This document shows, in pieces, positions 9,660 through 26,145 of a stretch of 64,000 bases of DNA; the first letter of the stretch is position 1; each line of letters begins with the position of its first letter. The notes beneath the pieces are model-generated. The model saw only the letters and a program-made list of their open reading frames with translations. It was not told the DNA's origin and did no database searches. A program made the position numbers and the translations under genes. Origin of the DNA: an uncultured bacterium (GTDB taxonomy: Bacteria > Patescibacteriota > Minisyncoccia > Phycocordibacterales > UBA2100); assembly GCA_903854215.1 (NCBI GenBank), contig CAINVT010000009.1:191-64190 (forward strand), in the 5' to 3' direction.

Positions 9660-10043
9660 ATGTTGCGCATTTCAGGAGTTACCATACCGGATACCAAACG
9701 TCTCGAGATCGGATTGACCACCATCTACGGTATCGGTCGTCCGCGGGCGTTGACGACACTTGCGGACCTCGGGATCGATCCGGGAATGCGCCCGACTGAT
9801 CTTTCTGCGGCGCAGGAGTCAGCGCTGCGCGAAGCCATCGAGAAGTTCGCCGTAGAAGGAGAATTGAAACGCGATATTAGCACGAACATCCGCCGCCTTA
9901 AGGACATCAAATCATATCGCGGTAGCCGTCATGCGAAGCATTTGCCCGCACACGGTCAGGGCACGAAGACGAATTCTCGTACGGTTCGTGGTAATGTTCG
10001 TAAGACTATGACTTCAGGTCGCCGTAAGCTTGAGAAGACATAA
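9660..10043 (+). CDS. rpsM: 30S ribosomal protein S13
   Basis: MLRISGVTIPDTKRLEIGLTTIYGIGRPRA... is the canonical S13 N-terminus. Confidence 0.95.
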   Translation: MLRISGVTIPDTKRLEIGLTTIYGIGRPRALTTLADLGIDPGMRPTDLSAAQESALREAIEKFAVEGELKRDISTNIRRLKDIKSYRGSRHAKHLPAHGQGTKTNSRTVRGNVRKTMTSGRRKLEKT

Positions 10044-10129
10044 GGAAATTTGAGCTTCTAGCTGCTAGGGACTAGGTTTTAGAAGTCTCAAAAAGCTAGC
10101 AACTAGAAACTAGAAACTAATTCAAAACC

Positions 10130-10564
10130 ATGGGAAAAAAACGAATCATAAGAAAATCAGGCGGAACTGTCGATGCGGGACTCAAGTCGCGCTCTCTTGC
10201 ACGCGTCGCCAAGAAGAATATCACTGCCGGTACGCTGCACATCCACGCGACGTTCAACAACACGAAGGTGCTGCTTGCAGACAGAAGCGGTAACACCGTC
10301 GCATGGTCATCTTCCGGAAGTCTTGGATTCTCAGGAGCCAAAAAGGGCACTCCGTTCGCCGCTGCAAAAGTCGGAGAATTGGTCGGCGACAAAGCGAACA
10401 TTATTGGCATGAAGGAGGTCGAAGTTGTCATCCGCGGTGTCGGTGCCGGTCGCGAATCAGCATTGCGTGCCTTTGCCGGTAAGGGGATCGATGTCACCCG
10501 CATTGCAGATGATACGCCGATCCCGCATAATGGCCCACGACCCCCGAAGCCTCGTCGTATATAA
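10130..10564 (+). CDS. rpsK: 30S ribosomal protein S11
   Basis: GTLHIHATFNNTKVLLADRSGNTVAWSSSGSLGFSGAKKGTPFAA is the S11 signature. Confidence 0.95.
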   Translation: MGKKRIIRKSGGTVDAGLKSRSLARVAKKNITAGTLHIHATFNNTKVLLADRSGNTVAWSSSGSLGFSGAKKGTPFAAAKVGELVGDKANIIGMKEVEVVIRGVGAGRESALRAFAGKGIDVTRIADDTPIPHNGPRPPKPRRI

Positions 10565-10681
10565 GCAGTTATTAGTTGTTAGTTTATAGTTTTTAGATAT
10601 GAACATCATGAAAGCAATCTGCCGGGAAAACAAAAACTGTTTGCTATCAACTGACAACTACTAGCTAACAACTGATTCATT
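10565..10681 (+). promoter_or_regulatory. structured rpsK-rpsD intergenic leader with long imperfect inverted repeats; candidate S4 autoregulatory site
   Basis: The 5' arm CAGTTATTAGTTGTTAGTTTATAGTT pairs with the 3' arm CAACTGACAACTACTAGCTAACAACTG, and there is an inner 4-bp GCAA/TTGC stem. It sits immediately upstream of rpsD. Confidence 0.3.
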
Positions 10682-11287
10682 ATGTTACTCGTAAAATCAC
10701 AATACAGGATCGCCCGTCGCCTCGGCGCCGGTGTCTTTGAGAAGACACAATCACAGAAATTCGCGCTTTCAGAAGCTAATACGAAAAAGCCGCGCGGGCG
10801 TGCGCTTTCTGATTACGGTCGCCAATTGATCGAGAAGCAAAAGGTGCGATTTACGTATGGCCTGTCCGAACGCCAGCTTTCAAATTACGCACAGGCTGCG
10901 TTCAAAGAAAAAGAGCCGTCAGTTGCATTGAACATCGCACTCGAGATGCGTGCAGATTCTGCGGTCTATCGAGCCGGCTTCGCCGCCACTCGTCGTGCCG
11001 CTCGTCAGATCGTCAGTCATGGCCATATTGTCGTGAACGGTGTACGAATTACGACGCCTTCGTACCATGTTCGCGTCGGCGATGTCATCACGGTACGAGA
11101 GGGAAGCCGTACCAGTCCGCTTTTTGCCGGTCTCGCAGAAGTTAATCCCGAAAGTGGTCGTGCGATTCCAGGCTGGATCACGGCAGATCCAAAGGTACTT
11201 CGAGCGGAGATCAAGACTGAACCGACCTACAACAGTATAGATATGGGACTCGATTACCCGACGGTGTTTGAGTTTTACAGCAGATAA
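10682..11287 (+). CDS. rpsD: 30S ribosomal protein S4
   Basis: 201 aa with RQLIEKQKVRFTYGLSERQLSNY and an S4 RNA-binding domain. Confidence 0.95.
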   Translation: MLLVKSQYRIARRLGAGVFEKTQSQKFALSEANTKKPRGRALSDYGRQLIEKQKVRFTYGLSERQLSNYAQAAFKEKEPSVALNIALEMRADSAVYRAGFAATRRAARQIVSHGHIVVNGVRITTPSYHVRVGDVITVREGSRTSPLFAGLAEVNPESGRAIPGWITADPKVLRAEIKTEPTYNSIDMGLDYPTVFEFYSR

Positions 11288-14356: not shown

Positions 14357-14956
14357 ATGGTCAATTCCGAGAAGATAAAACTAAAATTTCGCGGTATCAA
14401 AAAGGCTTCCGAATATCGCCGCGGAGAGCTTGCGCGCGATGTTCTGAAGGTTGCTGCTGCAGGTCTTGCAGTCGGATCAGTGATCGTGGCTCCGAATATG
14501 CCTCAAATAATTGATTACTTCGATCCGAAAGGTGTCGCAGAACGCCGGCGTATATGGCGCGCGATAAGATATTTGGAAGAGCGAAATACGATAGAGATTC
14601 GCAAGGAAGACGGACATGAGATGGTATTCCTGACGAAGAAAGGCAAAGTACAGCTCGATGAAGATTCGATATGGGATATGGAGATCAGAAAACCGTGGCA
14701 CTGGGATCATAAGTGGCGATTGATCATGTTTGATCTTCCCGCACGTTTCGAGCGGGTGCGTCGGCCATTCCGCGAGAAACTAGCCGATTTCGGTCTCGTA
14801 TCATATCAGAAATCCATCTTCATTTATCCGTATGAATGCCAGGAGGAGATCCTTACGCTCGCGGAATTTTACGGAGTTCGCGAATATATTTGTTACATCG
14901 TTGCGGACGAGATAAGTAACATGCGGGAGATTGCAAAACGGTTTGACTTGTCATGA
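14357..14956 (+). CDS. PaaX-like protein: N-terminal winged-helix domain plus C-terminal Cas2/VapD-like domain; inserted between grpE and dnaK
   Basis: 199 aa. The C-terminal WRLIMFDLPARFERVRRPFREKLADFGLVSYQKSIFIY follows the Cas2/PaaX_C pattern (hydrophobic strand-D-x-P ... R-rich ... GF/G-x-vQ-S-V/I-F). The N-terminal RYLEERNTIEIRKEDGHEMVFLTKKGK is wHTH-like. The domain assignment is from motif recognition only. Confidence 0.5.
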   Translation: MVNSEKIKLKFRGIKKASEYRRGELARDVLKVAAAGLAVGSVIVAPNMPQIIDYFDPKGVAERRRIWRAIRYLEERNTIEIRKEDGHEMVFLTKKGKVQLDEDSIWDMEIRKPWHWDHKWRLIMFDLPARFERVRRPFREKLADFGLVSYQKSIFIYPYECQEEILTLAEFYGVREYICYIVADEISNMREIAKRFDLS

Positions 14957-19453: not shown

Positions 19454-20734
19454 ATGAAGACAACGACTCAAGTCGCTCGGGATGTTGCCTTTACGGCCAA
19501 CACCCTCGGACGAGTAGCCTGCGATGCGCTCACTCTGCGAACTGGCTACCAGTTTTCGCGTAAACCTGGCAGATTTGCTTTTCTTGTTCATCCGAGAACT
19601 GCAAAACTTAGTCAAACAGGCGTGTATGGCGACAGTGATGTTTTCAAGGCAATTCCCGCCTTCAAATATCTCCGTCACATATTGCCAAAGCAATACGCAG
19701 AGCGTACTACGTTGCGGTTCTTAAGGAGACTACCACCGTCAACGATCGGGTATATATCTGCTCGGGGCGACGGGTATGACGTTTCTGGTCGTCTGCTCAC
19801 CACCCCCCGGCCGTTGGACATTCTGTTCAAGAATCCTGAAGAGACGCGCCCGCATCTCGAAGAGCTTTTCAGACTTGCAGCGTTGCAAGGAAATGATCGG
19901 GTGGGGCTTGGCGGACTTCTGCCTTCGCTCACCCGGGGTGGCAGACTGTTCGCCGGGATGGAACTAGCGTCGCGACCCGCAGTTTCAACCGGACACGCGT
20001 ACACGGCATATGTGATCTCCGAGTATCTGTTGCATCTTGTTTCTCACCGAAATAGAGATGGGGCAGCGCCGGAAGTGGCAGTTGTCGGCGCGGGCGGTTC
20101 AACTGGCAAGGCGATAGTGCGAACGTTTACTCGCGCATGGCCCAGCCGCGACATGTCTCCGATTAACCTGCTTCTCGTCGATACCAGGGAAGATCGGCTG
20201 ACTGAGATTGCTCAAGAAATCTCTGCCTGTCCAGCATTCAATCGTGTCAGGACGAGTGACAATCTCGCATCGATACGGAATTGCGAGTATGTGATCGTCG
20301 TAACTAATGCTCAAAATGCGATCATTAAGCCCGAGCACGTACGTCCGGGAATGGTGATCATTGATGACTCGCAACCTCGCAATACAGGTCCCGAGCTCGA
20401 AAAAGCCGGCTGCTTCGTGCTCGACGTGCTTGCTCGAATCAATGGTCTTGATTGTCGTTTCAACTTCGGCTTCAAAACTCTTGATCGAACGGTAACATTC
20501 ACGTGCTTGGCAGAGACAGTTCTCGCCGCTATTGCGGGATGTTCCGATGACCTCGCAGTCGGGGAAGTGACTTATGACGTGATCGAGCGGATGCTCGAGA
20601 TCGTCGAAGTCGGGAAACATCTCGGAGCGATCGGCGCGATGCCATTTTTCACCTTCGGGAGAGAGATGTCACCGAGCTTGAAAGAAAGACTGCATCAACC
20701 GGCAAAAGGTCGTGCGCTTGCCGCTGCAGAATAG
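19454..20734 (+). CDS. acyl-ACP reductase (AAR)-like NAD(P)-binding protein
   Basis: 426 aa. Three motifs line up with my recollection of cyanobacterial long-chain acyl-ACP reductase: STGHAYTAYVISEYL (cf. TGNTHTAYVICRQV); the Rossmann VAVVGAGGSTGKAIV (cf. VAVVGATGDIGSAV); and YVIVVTNAQNAIIKPEHVRPGMVIIDDSQPRN (cf. [33 protein letters not shown]). The Cys in LDCRFNFGF sits at the position of the AAR catalytic Cys (EHCFDID). Confidence 0.55.
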   Translation: MKTTTQVARDVAFTANTLGRVACDALTLRTGYQFSRKPGRFAFLVHPRTAKLSQTGVYGDSDVFKAIPAFKYLRHILPKQYAERTTLRFLRRLPPSTIGYISARGDGYDVSGRLLTTPRPLDILFKNPEETRPHLEELFRLAALQGNDRVGLGGLLPSLTRGGRLFAGMELASRPAVSTGHAYTAYVISEYLLHLVSHRNRDGAAPEVAVVGAGGSTGKAIVRTFTRAWPSRDMSPINLLLVDTREDRLTEIAQEISACPAFNRVRTSDNLASIRNCEYVIVVTNAQNAIIKPEHVRPGMVIIDDSQPRNTGPELEKAGCFVLDVLARINGLDCRFNFGFKTLDRTVTFTCLAETVLAAIAGCSDDLAVGEVTYDVIERMLEIVEVGKHLGAIGAMPFFTFGREMSPSLKERLHQPAKGRALAAAE

Positions 20735-20815
20735 TGCATATACACTGAGAGCCCCAAGACACCTTGGTGGCTCTCTTTCTTTTGTTACAATATAGAGCGT
20801 GTATACAAGTACGAC

Positions 20816-22417
20816 ATGTCTTTAAACTTCGACACAATCAATATCCTTGTCACCGTTGCGGGCGTGGCAAACCTCGCGTATGGCTTTCTCGTATGGGAGC
20901 GTGGAAAACACGAAAAAATGAATGAGGCGTTTTTCTTTTTTGCTTGTACCGTTACCCTTTGGGCAATCGGAATGTTCTTGTTTCGTGGTACTCTTACAGA
21001 AAGTTCAGCAGTCTTTGCTGCGCGTTTCTTGTACATAGTTGCAGCGCTTATTCCACTTGCTTTCGTTCATTTCGCATTCGTATTTGAAGCACCGTCATAT
21101 AAATACACATCATCAAGGGCAACATTAATCGCAATACCAGGTGCAATAGCTGTTGGCCTCGCAGCGATACCGAACATGCTTATCACCAGTGTTATTTTTG
21201 TACCGGGACATGAGCCGATCATCTTATTCAATCTTTTTTTCCACCTGCTGTATTTTTGCTATATTACCACGTATGCACTCGCCGTTTTAATACTGCTGTT
21301 GAAGCGATTTTCGCAGAGTTCAGGAGTTGTTCGCAACCGGATCGTGTACATTTTAATTGGTACATCTTTGCCGTGGACTGTCGGTATAACAACGAACATT
21401 ATTCTTCCCCTGTTCGGCATCTTTGCCTATAACTGGCTTGGACAAGTATCAACCTTCTTTTCTACGACGGTCATTTCCTACGGAATTTTTCGGTCGCGGC
21501 TCTTCAATGTTCGAGTCGTCACGACCGAGTTGCTCGTGCTTATTGTGACATTCATTTCATTCATACAGATACTTTTGAGCGCGAATGTCAAACAAACATT
21601 TTTGGAAGCGTGTGTCTTCATATTACTGCTCATTGCCGGTTACCTCCTCATTCGGAGTGTTTACCATGAAGCCGAACAACGTGAACTAATCGAACGTCAG
21701 GAAAAAAATCTTGAGGCAGTCAATCTTCAACAAGAAAGCCTCCTTCATTTCATGAGCCATGAGATCAAGGGGTATCTGACAAAAAGCGAGGCGGGGTTTG
21801 CCGCCATCGTACAAGGTGATTTTGACCCCGTCACACCGGAACTTGCGCGCATGGCGAATGATGCGCTTGTCGACATACGCAGGGGCGTTCGCACTGTCAT
21901 AGATATTTTGGACGCGTCGAATCTCAAGCGTGGAACCGTTTCCTTCAAGAAGAATGTGTTCGATCTCAAAGATGTGGTACAAGGCGTAGTCGATCACCTG
22001 AAACCCGCCGCAGACGAAAAACATCTGACCATCAACATGTCTCTCGCGTGGGAAGTGCCGTGCAAGGTTATCGGTGATGAAGAGAAGATTCGCAATCATG
22101 TCATTCGTAATCTTGTCGACAACGCGATCAAATACACACCCGCGGGCACTATTTCCGTGGAAGTCATCCGAGTCGACAAAATAGTGCGATTTAGCATACA
22201 AGATAGCGGCGTTGGCATCACCGATGAAGACAAAAAGAAGCTTTTCACCGAGGGTGGTCATGGCAAAGATTCGGTCAAGGTCAACGTGCATTCGACCGGC
22301 TATGGTCTCTACATCGCGAAGACTATTGTCGAAGCCCAAGGCGGCAAGATTTGGGCCGAGTCCGAAGGGGCAGGGAAGGGGTCGAGATTCGTGGTCGAAT
22401 TGCCTGCTGTTACATAA
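20816..22417 (+). CDS. sensor histidine kinase with an N-terminal polytopic (about 8 TM) sensor domain; no adjacent response regulator
   Basis: H-box SHEIKGYL, N-box VIRNLVDNAIKYT, G1 IQDSGVGI, G2 GYGLYIAKTIVEAQGG. Confidence 0.85.
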   Translation: MSLNFDTINILVTVAGVANLAYGFLVWERGKHEKMNEAFFFFACTVTLWAIGMFLFRGTLTESSAVFAARFLYIVAALIPLAFVHFAFVFEAPSYKYTSSRATLIAIPGAIAVGLAAIPNMLITSVIFVPGHEPIILFNLFFHLLYFCYITTYALAVLILLLKRFSQSSGVVRNRIVYILIGTSLPWTVGITTNIILPLFGIFAYNWLGQVSTFFSTTVISYGIFRSRLFNVRVVTTELLVLIVTFISFIQILLSANVKQTFLEACVFILLLIAGYLLIRSVYHEAEQRELIERQEKNLEAVNLQQESLLHFMSHEIKGYLTKSEAGFAAIVQGDFDPVTPELARMANDALVDIRRGVRTVIDILDASNLKRGTVSFKKNVFDLKDVVQGVVDHLKPAADEKHLTINMSLAWEVPCKVIGDEEKIRNHVIRNLVDNAIKYTPAGTISVEVIRVDKIVRFSIQDSGVGITDEDKKKLFTEGGHGKDSVKVNVHSTGYGLYIAKTIVEAQGGKIWAESEGAGKGSRFVVELPAVT

Positions 22418-22483
22418 AAGTCTCTTTCTAAAGCAAATAGACAGTTTTTATAAACGAGCATATTACGCTCATAATAGCTTTGT

Positions 22484-23944
22484 ATGTCGCGATTAGTCGT
22501 CTTTTGCGGGGGGATGGGAAGTGGAAAATCCACCTGCGCTGAGATCTTGGGAAACCATTTATCGGGAAAAAAAATTCGAGTGAAATACCTTAATGCATAT
22601 AAAGATCTTTACGAACCATTCGCGAGAAAGCAAGGTTTGGAGATACCTACGGACGTAACTCGCGAGAAGAGTAGTGACCTCGTACAGCAACTCTATAAAC
22701 GCTTTGGCAAGGAAATTGGAAGTGAACTTGTTATCGATCTCATGCGCAACAGTCACGACGAGGACATCTATATACTTGACAGTAAAAGGAATCCTGCCGG
22801 TATCACATTTCTTAAAAAAGAGCTCCACGAGCAATGTGTGGTCATTGGTGTTTATGCAAATGAGCAAATTCGCGCGAATCGCCTCATGCGTAGGCAACGC
22901 CCAGATGATGAGTTTCGGAACAGAGACGTAATCACTAATGCCATGCTCAAAGAGGAAACGCTGTATGCTCTCAGTGAATCGCTTAAGCTTGCGGATCACA
23001 CCATTGCGAACATATATGATTCGATTCAAGAACTTGAAGAGGCGATGGCGCCGATCATTGTCCTCCTTTGTGATCAGGAGTATGATCTTGTCAGATATGT
23101 GAGGGCACTTTGGGCGAAATTGATGGCTGTATATTTTCCCACAGAGTCAGTAGATTCAAAAAACAATATGAATACGCTTTTAAAGCTCGCAGTGCAAAAA
23201 GTAGAGCTTGCGAGATTCTATGATAAATATTGCATCAACATACTATCAAACGTAGATATTTCCACTCTGGAGCAGTCCAACAACGAGTTTGAGGTTAAGT
23301 TTCGGTGCACAAACAAGAACAAGGATATTCTATGCTCCTATCTTGAACGTATAGGCATATCAAAACTCCCCGATCACGTGCTTGAAGACGATATTGTTAT
23401 TGACACGGAAGATGGAAAATTGAAGCGGCTGGGTGTTTTGGTAAGATTTCGCAATTCGAATCAAGAACCGTGTCCACTGCTCACTTTAAAGTTTAAACAA
23501 TCGGGAGACAGGACGACCAAGCACGACATCGAATTACAAAAGAATTTGACGAGAGCAAACATGTTTTTCTCCGAACTGGTGAACGACTTCTTCCAGGCGC
23601 TCAACTTAGAAAAAATTGATTTAGAATCCGTTTCGACCCTTCAAAATGGCGATGCCATTCAAAATTTTTTCAGCAATACGGTTTATAATCGCGTGAGAAT
23701 GCGTATCCAGAAACGAAGGAGCTCAATATCGCTATCGAACCACATTCAGGTATGCATTGATGAGCTACCTCATGATATCGGCACGTTTATTGAACTGGAG
23801 TCGGATTCCAAACTACAGCTCGAAAAGTTTATTGATAAAGTTGGTCTTGGTTATGATGTTGCGATAACCGACGACTATGGCAAGCTGGTAATCTCCTTTA
23901 ATGAACAGCACGGACGGACACCTTCTCGCGTAGCGATCTTTTAA
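22484..23944 (+). CDS. P-loop NTPase/kinase domain fused to a C-terminal CYTH (triphosphate tunnel metalloenzyme) domain
   Basis: Walker A VVFCGGMGSGKST at the N-terminus. The C-terminal FEVKFRC...LKRLGVLVRFR...LTLKFKQSG...KHDIELQ...RVRMRIQKRR...GTFIELE matches the CYTH ExExK/R-x-R/ExE pattern. Confidence 0.55.
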   Translation: MSRLVVFCGGMGSGKSTCAEILGNHLSGKKIRVKYLNAYKDLYEPFARKQGLEIPTDVTREKSSDLVQQLYKRFGKEIGSELVIDLMRNSHDEDIYILDSKRNPAGITFLKKELHEQCVVIGVYANEQIRANRLMRRQRPDDEFRNRDVITNAMLKEETLYALSESLKLADHTIANIYDSIQELEEAMAPIIVLLCDQEYDLVRYVRALWAKLMAVYFPTESVDSKNNMNTLLKLAVQKVELARFYDKYCINILSNVDISTLEQSNNEFEVKFRCTNKNKDILCSYLERIGISKLPDHVLEDDIVIDTEDGKLKRLGVLVRFRNSNQEPCPLLTLKFKQSGDRTTKHDIELQKNLTRANMFFSELVNDFFQALNLEKIDLESVSTLQNGDAIQNFFSNTVYNRVRMRIQKRRSSISLSNHIQVCIDELPHDIGTFIELESDSKLQLEKFIDKVGLGYDVAITDDYGKLVISFNEQHGRTPSRVAIF

Positions 23945-23950
23945 CCGAAC

Positions 23951-24939
23951 ATGAAGACAACCGTCACATCTCCCGCGCGGTTACATCTTGGTCTGATAGA
24001 TTGCGGTAACGCCACCCACCGTCTTTTTGGAGGTTTGGGCATATCGGTTGCGGGTCTACACGTACGGCTTGTCGCACAATCGTCAGATAAATGGAACTTT
24101 ACCTTGCGGGCGGACGCGAAGATGAACGGCTTGAACATGAAGTACGATTACTCTTCGAAAGACTACAAAAAATTGGCGCAGCCCCGTGTGATGTTGTCGT
24201 AGTGGACATGCCTCAACAACATTGCGGTCTCGGTTCCAAGACGAGCGTGTTGCTAAGTACAGCTGTCGCGATCGCTGACTTTTCAAATCTTCAACTTGAA
24301 CCCGCACAGCTTATCGCACTCTCGGGCCGCGGAGGTACCTCGGGCATTGGAATTAATACTTTTTTTCTTGGCGGAGTGATTGCCGATTCCGGCCATAGCG
24401 AACCAAAGCACTCTCGGAACTTTGCACCATCTTCGCGACGGATGGGACCAGCATCCTTACCAAAGGTTGTTGCACGAGTCGAAGTACCGGACAATATGCG
24501 CGTTCTCCTTTTTATCGATACTTTCTCGTCGAAAATACGTATTCAAGGCAACGAGGAAATGCGAATATTCGCAGAAACTATGCCTCTCAAAGAAATAGAG
24601 AACCTTCGATCACTCGCCGCCGTGTATCACGGCGTGATACCAGCGTTGCAGGAGGGTGATATGAATATGCTGTTCCAGTCCATCCGTGATCTCAACAGTT
24701 GTGGAATGAAGCAGATTGAAGTAAATCTACAGTCGAATATTACTCAAACTTTTATCCGCGATGTCTGGAGCAATTCGATACCGTGCGGTGTTTCAAGCTT
24801 TGGTCCAATTGTCTTCTGTATAGTTAACGCGAATTCTGACGCTATTACAGTGGCAATGAGGCTGGCACATGTCCATAACCTCACTTGTATGGGCCTCTTT
24901 GCATTCGACAATACTGGTGCAATCAGCGAGCGCTCATGA
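23951..24939 (+). pseudogene. GHMP-kinase superfamily, beta-RFAP-synthase-like gene interrupted by a frameshift near 24105-24130
   Basis: The N-terminal 83-aa ORF (23951..24202, frame 2) carries PARLHLGLID...GGLGISVAG. The 282-aa ORF (24091..24939, frame 1) carries the ATP-binding motif QHCGLGSKTSVLLSTAVAIAD. Both halves are needed for one GHMP-fold protein. Junction sequence: GCGGGCGGACGCGAAGATGAACGG. Confidence 0.5.
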
Positions 24940-24940
24940 T

Positions 24941-25822
24941 ATGGAACGGCTTTCTTTTTTGATTGACGATAGTGATCTTAGGCGCGCGCTCGAAACACTT
25001 GATATTGTCCTTGATTTAAAAAATATTCATAGAACACAACGAGGTTCAGTGATTATTGGAATGCGCGGTTCAGAGAAAGTCGCTGTCAAAATCGCTTCAA
25101 AAGATATATGCGATACGGAATTCGGAATCGTTCCAGCACGTAGTGTGGGACTTCAGAACGAAATTTGTGCACTCCTCAATCTCAAGGACAGCGGTCCGTT
25201 TCCCGAAATGATTGCCTGTATGGTCTCGCCCAAATTCAATATCTGCGTTATGAGATACATAAACGGAATGAGTGGCTTTGGAATTCCCGCCAATCAACGC
25301 CTCTCCGCCGTGCAGGGTCTATTCGTAGCTGTACGACGCCTTCATGAGCTTGGCTACACGCACGGAGATATCCAACCCAACAACATCATCTTTACTGATG
25401 GTCAGAGACCTGCTGTTACTCTGATCGATTTCGAGCTAATTTCACGCATTGATTCATCAGCCCCGCAATATCCCGGAAAGAGAGAGTATCTGTCTCCTGA
25501 AAGTGCGAACGAGGTATTAGGCATAGGATACGTCTCGCGGCACCTGTCACAAGATCTTTATGCGCTTGCTTTATCGTCGCTGACAATTCTTGCAGATAAA
25601 GAGCAAGTGACATACCACGGGCACGATCTTTCCGATGAGCAGAAACTTGGACAAATAGCCGCGCGAAACGTTCGAATTAACACTCCTTCGGGATATTCAG
25701 AACCAGTCTTTGCTCAAGCGCTGGAGAGGCTGATTCTCGATCCAAAATGGTTTGCGCTACGTACTGTAGATGATCTTGCTAAAGTAACTGATCTCCACTT
25801 CGAGAACTTCAATGTGCGCTGA
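24941..25822 (+). CDS. protein-kinase-like (ePK/APH/Kdo-kinase fold) phosphotransferase
   Basis: ATG at 24941, 2 nt after the preceding stop. Catalytic-loop-like YTHGDIQPNNIIF (HGD-x-x-P-x-N) and DFG-like TLIDFE. Lys candidate in VAVKIASKD. Confidence 0.55.
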   Translation: MERLSFLIDDSDLRRALETLDIVLDLKNIHRTQRGSVIIGMRGSEKVAVKIASKDICDTEFGIVPARSVGLQNEICALLNLKDSGPFPEMIACMVSPKFNICVMRYINGMSGFGIPANQRLSAVQGLFVAVRRLHELGYTHGDIQPNNIIFTDGQRPAVTLIDFELISRIDSSAPQYPGKREYLSPESANEVLGIGYVSRHLSQDLYALALSSLTILADKEQVTYHGHDLSDEQKLGQIAARNVRINTPSGYSEPVFAQALERLILDPKWFALRTVDDLAKVTDLHFENFNVR

Positions 25823-25914
25823 ATTCTCAATATTCTAAAAAGAGTACACATTCCCAGATTAAATGGTATAGTATTAAGGGGTATGCTCCTAGTACCCTTT
25901 GGGAGAAACGACTC

Positions 25915-26097
25915 ATGACTGTTTATGACCCTGTTGCAGCGCGGAAAGCCACCGAGAGACGCTTTCCTGTCACCTTTATCCGTGCTGCCGATGGCTGCCC
26001 AGTCGGGGCAGCAAAAGCGGACGATCTTGAAGCCGCGCTTGCAATCTTGTTCGAAAACGGCAACACTCGCGTTGACATCTCGTTTCCTGAGAAGTGA
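25915..26097 (+). CDS. small hypothetical protein (60 aa)
   Basis: RBS-like GGGAGAAACG upstream and a strong terminator hairpin downstream. No recognisable motif. Confidence 0.35.
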   Translation: MTVYDPVAARKATERRFPVTFIRAADGCPVGAAKADDLEAALAILFENGNTRVDISFPEK

Positions 26098-26108
26098 CGC
26101 TACGTCCG

Positions 26109-26145
26109 TGGCCGCCGTCTGATCGGCGGCCATATTTCATGTAAT
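26109..26145 (+). terminator. terminator-like hairpin upstream of trpS
   Basis: TGGCCGCCG-tctgat-CGGCGGCCA (9-bp perfect stem) followed by TATTTCATGTAATTTATT. Confidence 0.45.

Follow-up and report, generated by a model that had tools for sequence, protein, structure and literature searches.

The 64,000-nucleotide stretch of DNA analysed here (hereafter the window; contig CAINVT010000009.1 of assembly GCA_903854215.1, from an uncultured bacterium of the Patescibacteriota) contains a cassette of three rightwards-transcribed genes at positions 22484–25822. They encode a P-loop kinase-like protein fused to a CYTH triphosphate tunnel metalloenzyme (TTM) domain, a GHMP-fold protein related to beta-RFAP synthase and ForT, and a Hanks-type kinase. 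The GHMP member is optional, and the unit is this three-gene cassette and not the block of five genes (19454–25822) proposed in a first-pass annotation of the same DNA. The P-loop-CYTH and kinase genes are intact and appear to form the minimal functional core, and the GHMP gene as assembled carries a 1-nt frameshift. Judged by homology and linkage, the cassette may be a module for processing phosphoribosyl pyrophosphate (PRPP) and nucleotide analogues with a hydrolase-type TTM, a tentative reading in which we place somewhat less than even confidence. The features of the cassette are as follows.

22484..23944, + strand: core gene 1, a fusion of a P-loop nucleoside monophosphate (NMP)-kinase-like domain and a CYTH/TTM domain (Pfam, PDB, AlphaFold2 (AF2) model with Foldseek).
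23951..24939, + strand: core gene 2, a beta-RFAP-synthase/ForT-like GHMP-fold gene, frame-disrupted (NCBIfam, PDB, frame maps).
24092..24200, + strand: the frameshift interval, in which both frames are open (frame maps).
24941..25822, + strand: core gene 3, a Hanks-type kinase (eukaryotic-type protein kinase, ePK) of 293 aa (Pfam, PDB, orthologues).

About ten loci containing parts of the cassette were inspected. In three lineages (L001, L002 and L016, GCA_017973895.1) the P-loop-CYTH gene is followed immediately by the orthologous kinase gene, at 38–48% identity and with no GHMP gene. In a fourth (L010, represented by six assemblies) the two are separated by a 1-kb gap encoding a GHMP protein, and the spacer between the GHMP stop and the kinase start is 1 nt, as in the window. 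The kinase orthologues that follow the P-loop-CYTH gene in these four lineages are 35–48% identical. Other loci join the same parts differently. In P0017 the CYTH domain runs directly into the N-terminus of a GHMP protein (TINAPARIHMCLIDC; ...RSLTFDTKGYTINAPARIHMCLIDC). L005 and L006 share the order HTH/TPR regulator, AAA_18 kinase, pyruvate-kinase-like barrel, beta-RFAP-like GHMP protein, kinase-CYTH fusion, NTP_transf_5 protein and two ABC exporters; here the fusion (P0061) is an APH/LxmK-like kinase attached to CYTH, beside the AAA_18 and GHMP genes. This region (L005:5510-14564, and L006) has a low GC content and resembles a biosynthetic cluster, and its pyruvate-kinase-like barrel is truncated.

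The pairwise links (P-loop with CYTH, CYTH with kinase, and CYTH with a PRPP enzyme) are thus each found at least three times, and because each recurs in different arrangements they point to functional coupling. The cassette occupies a different housekeeping site in each lineage. The association of P-loop-CYTH, GHMP and protein-kinase-like genes suspected in the first-pass annotation is therefore a real and recurring one, with the same order and spacer in L010 and other fusions elsewhere; the triplet or the pair travels together, and the histidine kinase and AAR-like genes that were grouped with it are not seen beside it in the sequence available at other loci.

Fusions of this P-loop-CYTH type are exceedingly rare. 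Among 1.84 billion representative sequences searched exhaustively with HMMER there were 405 family hits, 16 of them at E≤1e-30, and a word index covering 5.8 billion sequences returned three P-loop-CYTH proteins, the latter method being insensitive (the kinase query returned only itself, and a 13-sequence profile returned four proteins). Scans of GTDB genome contigs and of viral contigs with the P-loop-CYTH alignment and the CYTH subgroup alignment returned nothing. The named relatives derive from a ~1-Mb single-contig metagenome-assembled genome (MAG) and from Saccharimonadales. Fusions of P-loop kinases to CYTH domains are as such already known; a literature search for CYTH in the neighbourhood of RFAP synthase, GHMP or phosphoribosyltransferase (PRTase) genes found no description of the cassette.

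The P-loop domain occupies aa 1–~199 of the fusion, with the Walker A motif GGMGSGKST, and the CYTH/TTM domain aa ~267–486, with the ExExK motif at E268/E270/K272; the AF2 model has predicted local distance difference test (pLDDT) values of 75–92 inside both domains. Against Pfam AAA_18 the P-loop domain scores 28.2 bits, slightly under the cut-off of 29.4. It matches the AMP-binding Sulfolobus protein SSO1041 (AdkA-like, UPF0200; PDB 3lw7/3h0k) at 6e-6, with a Foldseek value of 2e-6, and is similar to adenylate kinases and to SSO1041 with bound AMP; its LID region is modelled with low confidence. The CYTH domain belongs to Pfam CYTH PF01928 (25.7 bits; cut-off 23.2). Residues E268/E270/K272, R321/R323, K336, K410/R412 and E437/E439 are all present, and the corresponding ExExK, RxR, K, KxR and ExE motifs are invariant in 25 members of the CYTH subfamily. 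Foldseek searches with the AF2 model find TTM and class IV cyclase (AC-IV) structures at ~2e-9 and the kinase-TTM tandem of AtTTM1 (7z67) at 7e-9, and a BFVD fold search gives generic CYTH and dNMP-kinase matches only.

Published determinants separate the functional classes of this fold. In class IV cyclases an HF motif stands four residues ahead of ExExK and a small residue replaces the central arginine of RxR, and thiamine triphosphatases have a WxRxR motif with a stacking tryptophan (PMC8233210). In the window protein the sequence leading into ExExK reads LEQSNNEFEVK, with no HF motif, and LVRFR/VRFR keeps both arginines and has no tryptophan. A class IV adenylyl cyclase function of the CyaB type is rejected on account of the missing HF motif and the retained central arginine, and LVRFR without tryptophan does not fit a thiamine triphosphatase. 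Because HF is absent and the central arginine is kept, the CYTH domain probably groups with the phosphohydrolase-type TTMs, and by its residues the tunnel looks active, unlike that of AtTTM1. The earlier description of the last four genes of the block as phosphotransferases is accordingly loose: the CYTH domain resembles a phosphohydrolase, and the GHMP protein falls into a family of glycoside synthases that depend on PRPP.

The GHMP gene was originally given as a single ORF, the only one of five open reading frames (ORFs) that does not stand. The other four are exact on the + strand (19454–20734, 426 aa; 20816–22417, 533 aa; 22484–23944, 486 aa; 24941–25822, 293 aa); 23951–24939 spans 989 nt, and as this is not a multiple of 3 the gene is not one intact ORF. 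Two ORFs in different frames overlap here, 23951–24202 (83 aa, positions 2–66 of the beta-RFAP profile) and 24091–24939 (282 aa, positions 66–302), and one added base restores a protein of 329 aa. Membership of NCBIfam TIGR00144 (cut-off 113.5) is clear from both the C-terminal fragment (141.5 bits) and the repaired protein (165–170 bits). The repaired protein scores 180–184 bits against NF040726, the beta-RFAP equivalog of the methanopterin pathway, below the cut-off of 328. It matches ForT (6yqq) over its full length at E 8e-19, and alignment to 6yqq, compared with the published residue list (PMC8183095), shows that the ForT PRPP-binding residues R19, H99, T106, G134, R135 and S139 are conserved, including the H99–S104 turn. 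The PRPP-dependent chemistry that the first-pass annotation envisaged for a beta-RFAP synthase homologue is thus plausible, here in beta-RFAP/ForT-like form.

The best estimate of the frameshift position is 24109–24121, from junction scans against ForT and the L010 orthologue. An A6 tract at 24167–24172, the homologue of an A6 tract in L010, fits almost as well, and profile scores are flat over ten junction variants (NF040726, 180.5–184.2 bits) and do not discriminate between them. An independent 958-bp contig (L004) is identical to the window and begins at 24088, a few bases upstream of the shift interval, which may be a coincidence. A shift at the A3 run 24089–24091, suggested by this contig start, was dropped: Trp48 in the upstream frame is conserved with L010, and the junction scans favour 24109–24121. 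Programmed −1 frameshifting at the conserved CAAAAAAUU tract was likewise not taken up: this is not a canonical slippery heptamer, and in L010 recoding would have to happen a second time, at a G tract.

The L010 GHMP protein is 41% identical to that of the window (E 4e-83), and its gene (9721–10705, also in L011–L015) has two interruptions, one at A6 runs near 9925–9950 and one at a G6 run at 10099 that sits within the codons of the conserved SGRGG motif. Insertion of one A and two G yields 329 aa, the length of the repaired window protein. The six assemblies fall into two groups, four with A7/G6 (L010–L012, L015) and two with A8/G7 (L013, L014), which over ~4 kb differ only by those two indels, with one extra single-nucleotide polymorphism in L013; at the second shift site, therefore, G-tract length is polymorphic. 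The A7/A8 polymorphic tract of this lineage lies just 5′ of the likely start codon of the P-loop-CYTH gene. Elsewhere, G6–G7 runs fall within the Walker A Gly-Gly codons in the window (22508–22513) and in L016 (149) and lie just upstream of the gene in L001 (99); G6 runs in these loci are not above chance frequency, and an excess of G-runs, suggested by the Walker A runs of the window and L016, was discarded because the count is at chance level.

Neither broken GHMP gene has any other lesion and both keep their catalytic motifs, which suggests that the disruptions are either recent or reversible. Such recurrent breaks at homopolymer tracts may reflect either phase variation or a continuing loss of the gene, a loss that is complete in L001, L002 and L016. 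It is quite improbable that the whole cassette is a relic in decay, now without function in this organism, and that its association elsewhere reflects inherited gene order only. The GHMP gene is indeed broken in the window, broken twice in L010 and lost in three lineages. However, between lineages at 32–48% identity the P-loop-CYTH and kinase genes are both unbroken and retain every catalytic residue, the broken GHMP genes have their motifs and both repair to 329 aa, and fusions in differing orders point to functional coupling, not to inherited order.

The start of the kinase gene at 24941 is supported by homologues that open with MAERISF or MAVRVSF, the longest ORF beginning at 24869 (317 aa). 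This 317-aa ORF scores 36.6 bits against Pfam Pkinase PF00069 (cut-off 31.7), placing the protein among the Hanks-type kinases. APH PF01636 gives a local match only (20.3 bits; cut-off 23.2), and Kdo and RIO are also under threshold. The motifs include the lysine of VAVKIA, HGDIQPNN, DFE and an APE-like LSPES, with a degenerate glycine-rich loop; they are conserved in four orthologues, and the PDB alignment to twitchin and DAPK passes through DFG...APE (DFE...SPE in the window). Of the APH/ePK fold assigned in the first-pass annotation, the Hanks-type side is upheld by the Pkinase score and the SPE/APE-like motif, and the APH-type side is not. The assigned folds of the five proteins (AAR-like, seven-transmembrane (7TM) histidine kinase, P-loop plus CYTH, GHMP, kinase) otherwise hold in Pfam, NCBIfam and PDB searches and in the AF2 model.

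Both members of the core pair match models of defence proteins. The P-loop domain matches NCBIfam NF041025, an anti-phage dCTP deaminase, at 2e-7, its 30 bits lying far from the cut-off of 400 and the deaminase domain being absent, which places the protein outside that family. The PADLOC 'dCTPase' model matches at 1e-10 in the window, at 7e-13 in P0020 and in every member tested except P0013, and the kinase matches the defence Ser/Thr kinase models MkoA, mad6 and PD-T4-6. A conflict or anti-phage system could be envisaged in which the P-loop-TTM protein depletes or alters the nucleotide pool in the manner of AvcD/DCD, the Hanks-type kinase acts as infection sensor or regulator, and the PRPP enzyme makes a toxic or signalling nucleotide. 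The small and patchy family, its different insertion site in each lineage and the low GC content of the P-loop-CYTH gene (42.6%, against 50% for the window) would suit such a system, as would the homopolymer variability of the L010 lineage; variability of this kind is typical of conflict genes. Nevertheless we regard this as unlikely, though not negligibly so: the CYTH, GHMP and PRTase-like parts have no PADLOC match, the kinase matches are to the generic catalytic core, the neighbours are housekeeping genes and not defence islands, the viral contig scans are empty, and the contexts in L005 and L017 (ABC exporters, nucleotidyltransferase, aminotransferase) look biosynthetic.

The L017 context belongs to a sister family in which the same P-loop domain and the same CYTH subfamily are joined to a PRTase-like domain (L003, P0015, P0016, P0172), the CYTH domain being attached either within a protein of 850–870 aa or as an adjacent gene. 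A PRPP-loop-like motif, VVFIDDVFYRGRT (in PyrR, KVILVDDVLYTGRT), is invariant in 11 members. A type I PRTase is taken to have a loop of four hydrophobic residues followed by DD-x-x-x-x-G-x-T together with the PRT fold; the family profile finds in PDB mainly PyrR at that one motif, with E values of 0.01–1.7, and has no Pfam match. In L017:6313-10659 the fusion borders on an inorganic pyrophosphatase gene, and its end shares 4 nt with an aminotransferase gene. A convergent DHHA2-domain gene (pyrophosphatase-type) lies nearby in L003 (2707–3132), and in P0030 and P0096 CYTH is fused to PhnW-like class V aminotransferases.

These pyrophosphatase-type neighbours in L003 and L017 bear on a second alternative, a role in phosphate, triphosphate or nucleotide-energy homeostasis, in which an adenylate-kinase-like enzyme and a triphosphatase for tripolyphosphate (PPPi) or nucleoside triphosphates (NTP) act under a Ser/Thr kinase and GHMP is a decaying, unrelated passenger. 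Persistence of the pair without GHMP in L001, L002 and L016 is in keeping with this, as is the finding that characterised TTMs are typically PPPi/NTP phosphatases; plant TTM1/2 likewise couple a P-loop kinase to a TTM, and according to the title of a preprint TTM1 phosphorylation regulates programmed cell death. The GHMP or PRTase-like partners found in five independent arrangements, covalent fusions included, are hard to square with a passenger, however, and so rare a family is unlikely to have a general role. We judge homeostasis a little more doubtful still than defence; thiamine-phosphate and polyphosphate readings were considered and are kept only within it.

Under the favoured reading, processing of a PRPP-derived nucleotide analogue, the ForT-like enzyme would couple PRPP to an acceptor, probably an aromatic carboxylate, to give a ribosyl-5′-phosphate, nucleotide-like product; in the sister family the PRTase-like domain would take this PRPP-dependent step. 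The P-loop domain would phosphorylate the ribosyl-5′-phosphate product to the di- or triphosphate, and in L005 the pyruvate-kinase-like protein could supply the step from nucleoside diphosphate (NDP) to NTP. The fused TTM would then cleave the triphosphate end, in maturation or detoxification of the product, or would remove PPPi or pyrophosphate (PPi). The Hanks-type kinase would most likely regulate the P-loop-TTM protein by phosphorylation. In the window genome the PRPP step would be switched off or decaying, because the GHMP gene is frameshifted. The exporters, nucleotidyltransferase and aminotransferases of related loci appear to favour a small-molecule, nucleoside-analogue-like pathway over defence.

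Several points weigh against this scheme. The pair occurs without any GHMP gene in three lineages, and in both lineages where a separate GHMP gene sits between the pair it is frame-broken, so the core function may not need PRPP chemistry at all. Having a kinase and a triphosphatase in one protein would seem futile if they shared a substrate, the last kinase resembles protein kinases rather than those that act on small molecules, and the L005 kinase, of the other (APH/LxmK-like) subfamily, is analogous to the window kinase, not orthologous. The window contains no acceptor-synthesis genes and no transporter. The PRTase-like call depends on one motif (E about 0.01), and the P-loop and GHMP proteins of the window and L005 are weakly similar (E 0.007–0.02). 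The loci seen number about ten.

A bolder version, which we hold to be distinctly unlikely, is that the cassette would make a non-canonical ribonucleotide, ForT-type C-linked or otherwise unusual, which the kinase-TTM protein drives up to or trims from the triphosphate under control of the Ser/Thr kinase, the PRPP step being encoded by a homopolymer-dependent ON/OFF gene (contingency or recoded). This would fit because the GHMP gene is broken in both lineages where it is free-standing, shows no other lesions, and has a G tract that varies between near-identical strains. If true, it would represent a new, phase-variable nucleotide-analogue pathway in uncultured, probably small-genome bacteria.

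The genes and signals on either side of the cassette are as follows.

19454..20734, + strand: AAR/PigE-N-like Rossmann reductase gene, a neighbour outside the cassette.
20747..20775, + strand: intrinsic terminator hairpin of 12 bp with one bulge, followed by the U-tail UUUCUUUUGUU, between the AAR-like and histidine kinase genes.
20816..22417, + strand: 7TM sensor histidine kinase gene (HisKA_7TM and HATPase_c; Pfam), a neighbour.
22447..22475, + strand: promoter-like site TTTATA-17-CATAAT (consensus scan) in the 66-nt spacer 5′ of the P-loop-CYTH gene.
25915..26097, + strand: small ORF of 60 aa (MTVYDPVAARKATERR...) after the kinase gene (gene call on the independent contig L009).

The AAR-like protein matches the NCBIfam models PigE (3.8e-17) and AAR (1.1e-11), both far under cut-off, and scores 44.7 bits against TIGR04058, the cyanobacterial acyl-ACP reductase equivalog (cut-off 449.7); it is AAR-like only. 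The catalytic cysteine position is kept (TFTCLAET) in the alignment to PDB 6jzu. The hairpin that follows has a predicted free energy of −21.1 kcal/mol (z = −5.0), and none of 200 shuffled sequences folds as stably. As this strong terminator lies directly 3′ of the AAR-like gene, that gene forms its own transcription unit. The histidine kinase gene is probably also outside the cassette. No response regulator was found among the adjacent genes or ten small ORFs tested, as the first-pass annotation had also noted, and the protein is not assigned to a two-component system.

It is very improbable that the five genes of the first-pass annotation belong to a single operon or pathway in which the histidine kinase acts as the sensor. 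In favour are their shared direction and the short spacer, of just 66 nt and with no terminator found, that separates the histidine kinase and P-loop-CYTH genes. The terminator after the AAR-like gene nevertheless separates that gene from the rest, and a promoter-like site precedes the P-loop-CYTH gene, the latter being weak evidence as such sites are no more frequent in the scan than expected from shuffled sequence. Neither the histidine kinase nor the AAR-like gene is seen in the sequence around the cassette in L001, L002, L010 and L016, of which L001, L002 and L016 include only 100–230 nt upstream. The spacers across the five genes are 81, 66, 6 and 1 nt (the last two had been given as 7 and 2 nt), and short spacers are the rule here: from 198 to 31289 all ORFs but one are on the + strand (greedy gene map with a 90-aa minimum ORF length). 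Because nearly the whole of this 31-kb region is co-directional and compact, the local layout proves nothing by itself.

The small ORF after the kinase gene is flanked by a promoter-like site (25845–25872) and a terminator-like hairpin (26108–26133) and has no Pfam match. Small ORFs also follow the kinase in L001 and L016 (64 and 78 aa), that of L001 without evident similarity to the one in the window. The surrounding genes have housekeeping functions, among them grpE-dnaK-dnaJ, scpA/scpB and the genes for ribosomal proteins and two aminoacyl-tRNA synthetases; the window lacks rRNA and tRNA genes. Between grpE and dnaK (14357–14956) lies a gene for a PaaX_M-domain (Cas2-like) protein of 199 aa; a heat-shock repressor gene is found near the grpE-dnaK operon in many bacteria. 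The GC content dips mildly between 22000 and 26000 (P-loop-CYTH gene 42.6%, kinase gene 46%, histidine kinase gene 46%; window mean 50%), which is compatible with acquisition from the low-GC lineages (30–36% GC) that carry relatives. The window proteins looked up, DnaK included, are singletons at 90% identity. Two other ENA metagenome assemblies contain fragments that match the window at 100% identity (L004, 24088–25045; L009, 25234–26146; L008, 14746–17447).

Homopolymer-tract (slipped-strand) contingency genes exist in host-associated bacteria, and the L010-lineage GHMP gene resembles them in being interrupted at A6 and G6 tracts, with G6 or G7 in near-identical strains. It differs in that only OFF states are seen, and in the window the shift site is not proven to be a long homopolymer, G6 runs being no more frequent than chance. 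The N-terminal P-loop domain of AvcD/DCD and archaeal UPF0200 proteins (SSO1041, 3lw7) provide the best profile and structure matches for the window P-loop domain; unlike AvcD/DCD, the window protein has no deaminase domain and has a TTM as fusion partner, and no defence context is seen. With SaTTM, CthTTM and NeuTTM (PMC8233210) the window protein shares the TTM fold and the full two-metal catalytic signature, but its CYTH domain belongs to a distinct subfamily of ~230 aa with a conserved C-terminal DYG...R.a.F extension.

The closest known architecture is that of Arabidopsis TTM1 and TTM2 (7z67; PMC9582702), in which an N-terminal P-loop nucleotide-kinase-like domain likewise precedes the TTM tunnel. 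Such fusions of a P-loop kinase to a TTM were recognised as early as the original definition of the CYTH domain. They are required in plants, where AtTTM2 function needs both modules (PMC9582702). The plant kinase domain is of the uridine/cytidine-kinase type PF00485 and that of the window is AAA_18/UPF0200-like; the AtTTM1 tunnel is catalytically incompetent and without the signature motifs, whereas the window tunnel has ExExK, RxR, KxR and ExE; and the window fusion has no C-terminal membrane anchor, unlike plant TTM1/2. A 473-aa PRK/uridine-kinase-CYTH fusion from a Candidatus Saccharimonadales MAG (P0116/P0177) is a closer bacterial analogue of the plant type. To our knowledge, no substrate or pathway has been assigned to P-loop-kinase/TTM fusions. 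The window fusion has a tunnel that is catalytically complete by sequence and recurrent, partly covalent partners (ForT-like or PRTase-like enzymes and kinases, and in relatives pyruvate-kinase-like proteins, aminotransferases and exporters), and these partners provide a testable hypothesis, the phosphorylation and dephosphorylation of a ribosyl-5′-phosphate metabolite.

ForT-like enzymes are sought as C-nucleoside biocatalysts. The window GHMP protein resembles ForT and the beta-RFAP synthase MptG (6yqq; PMC8183095) in its full-length match, its TIGR00144 score above cut-off and its PRPP residues. At about 183 bits, compared with the 328 required, it is not an orthologue of the methanopterin enzyme; the gene is frameshifted, no formycin or methanopterin pathway genes are nearby, and partners such as the P-loop-TTM protein and the Hanks-type kinase are not known for any characterised member. 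The cassette points to a divergent, unexplored clade of ForT-like enzymes.

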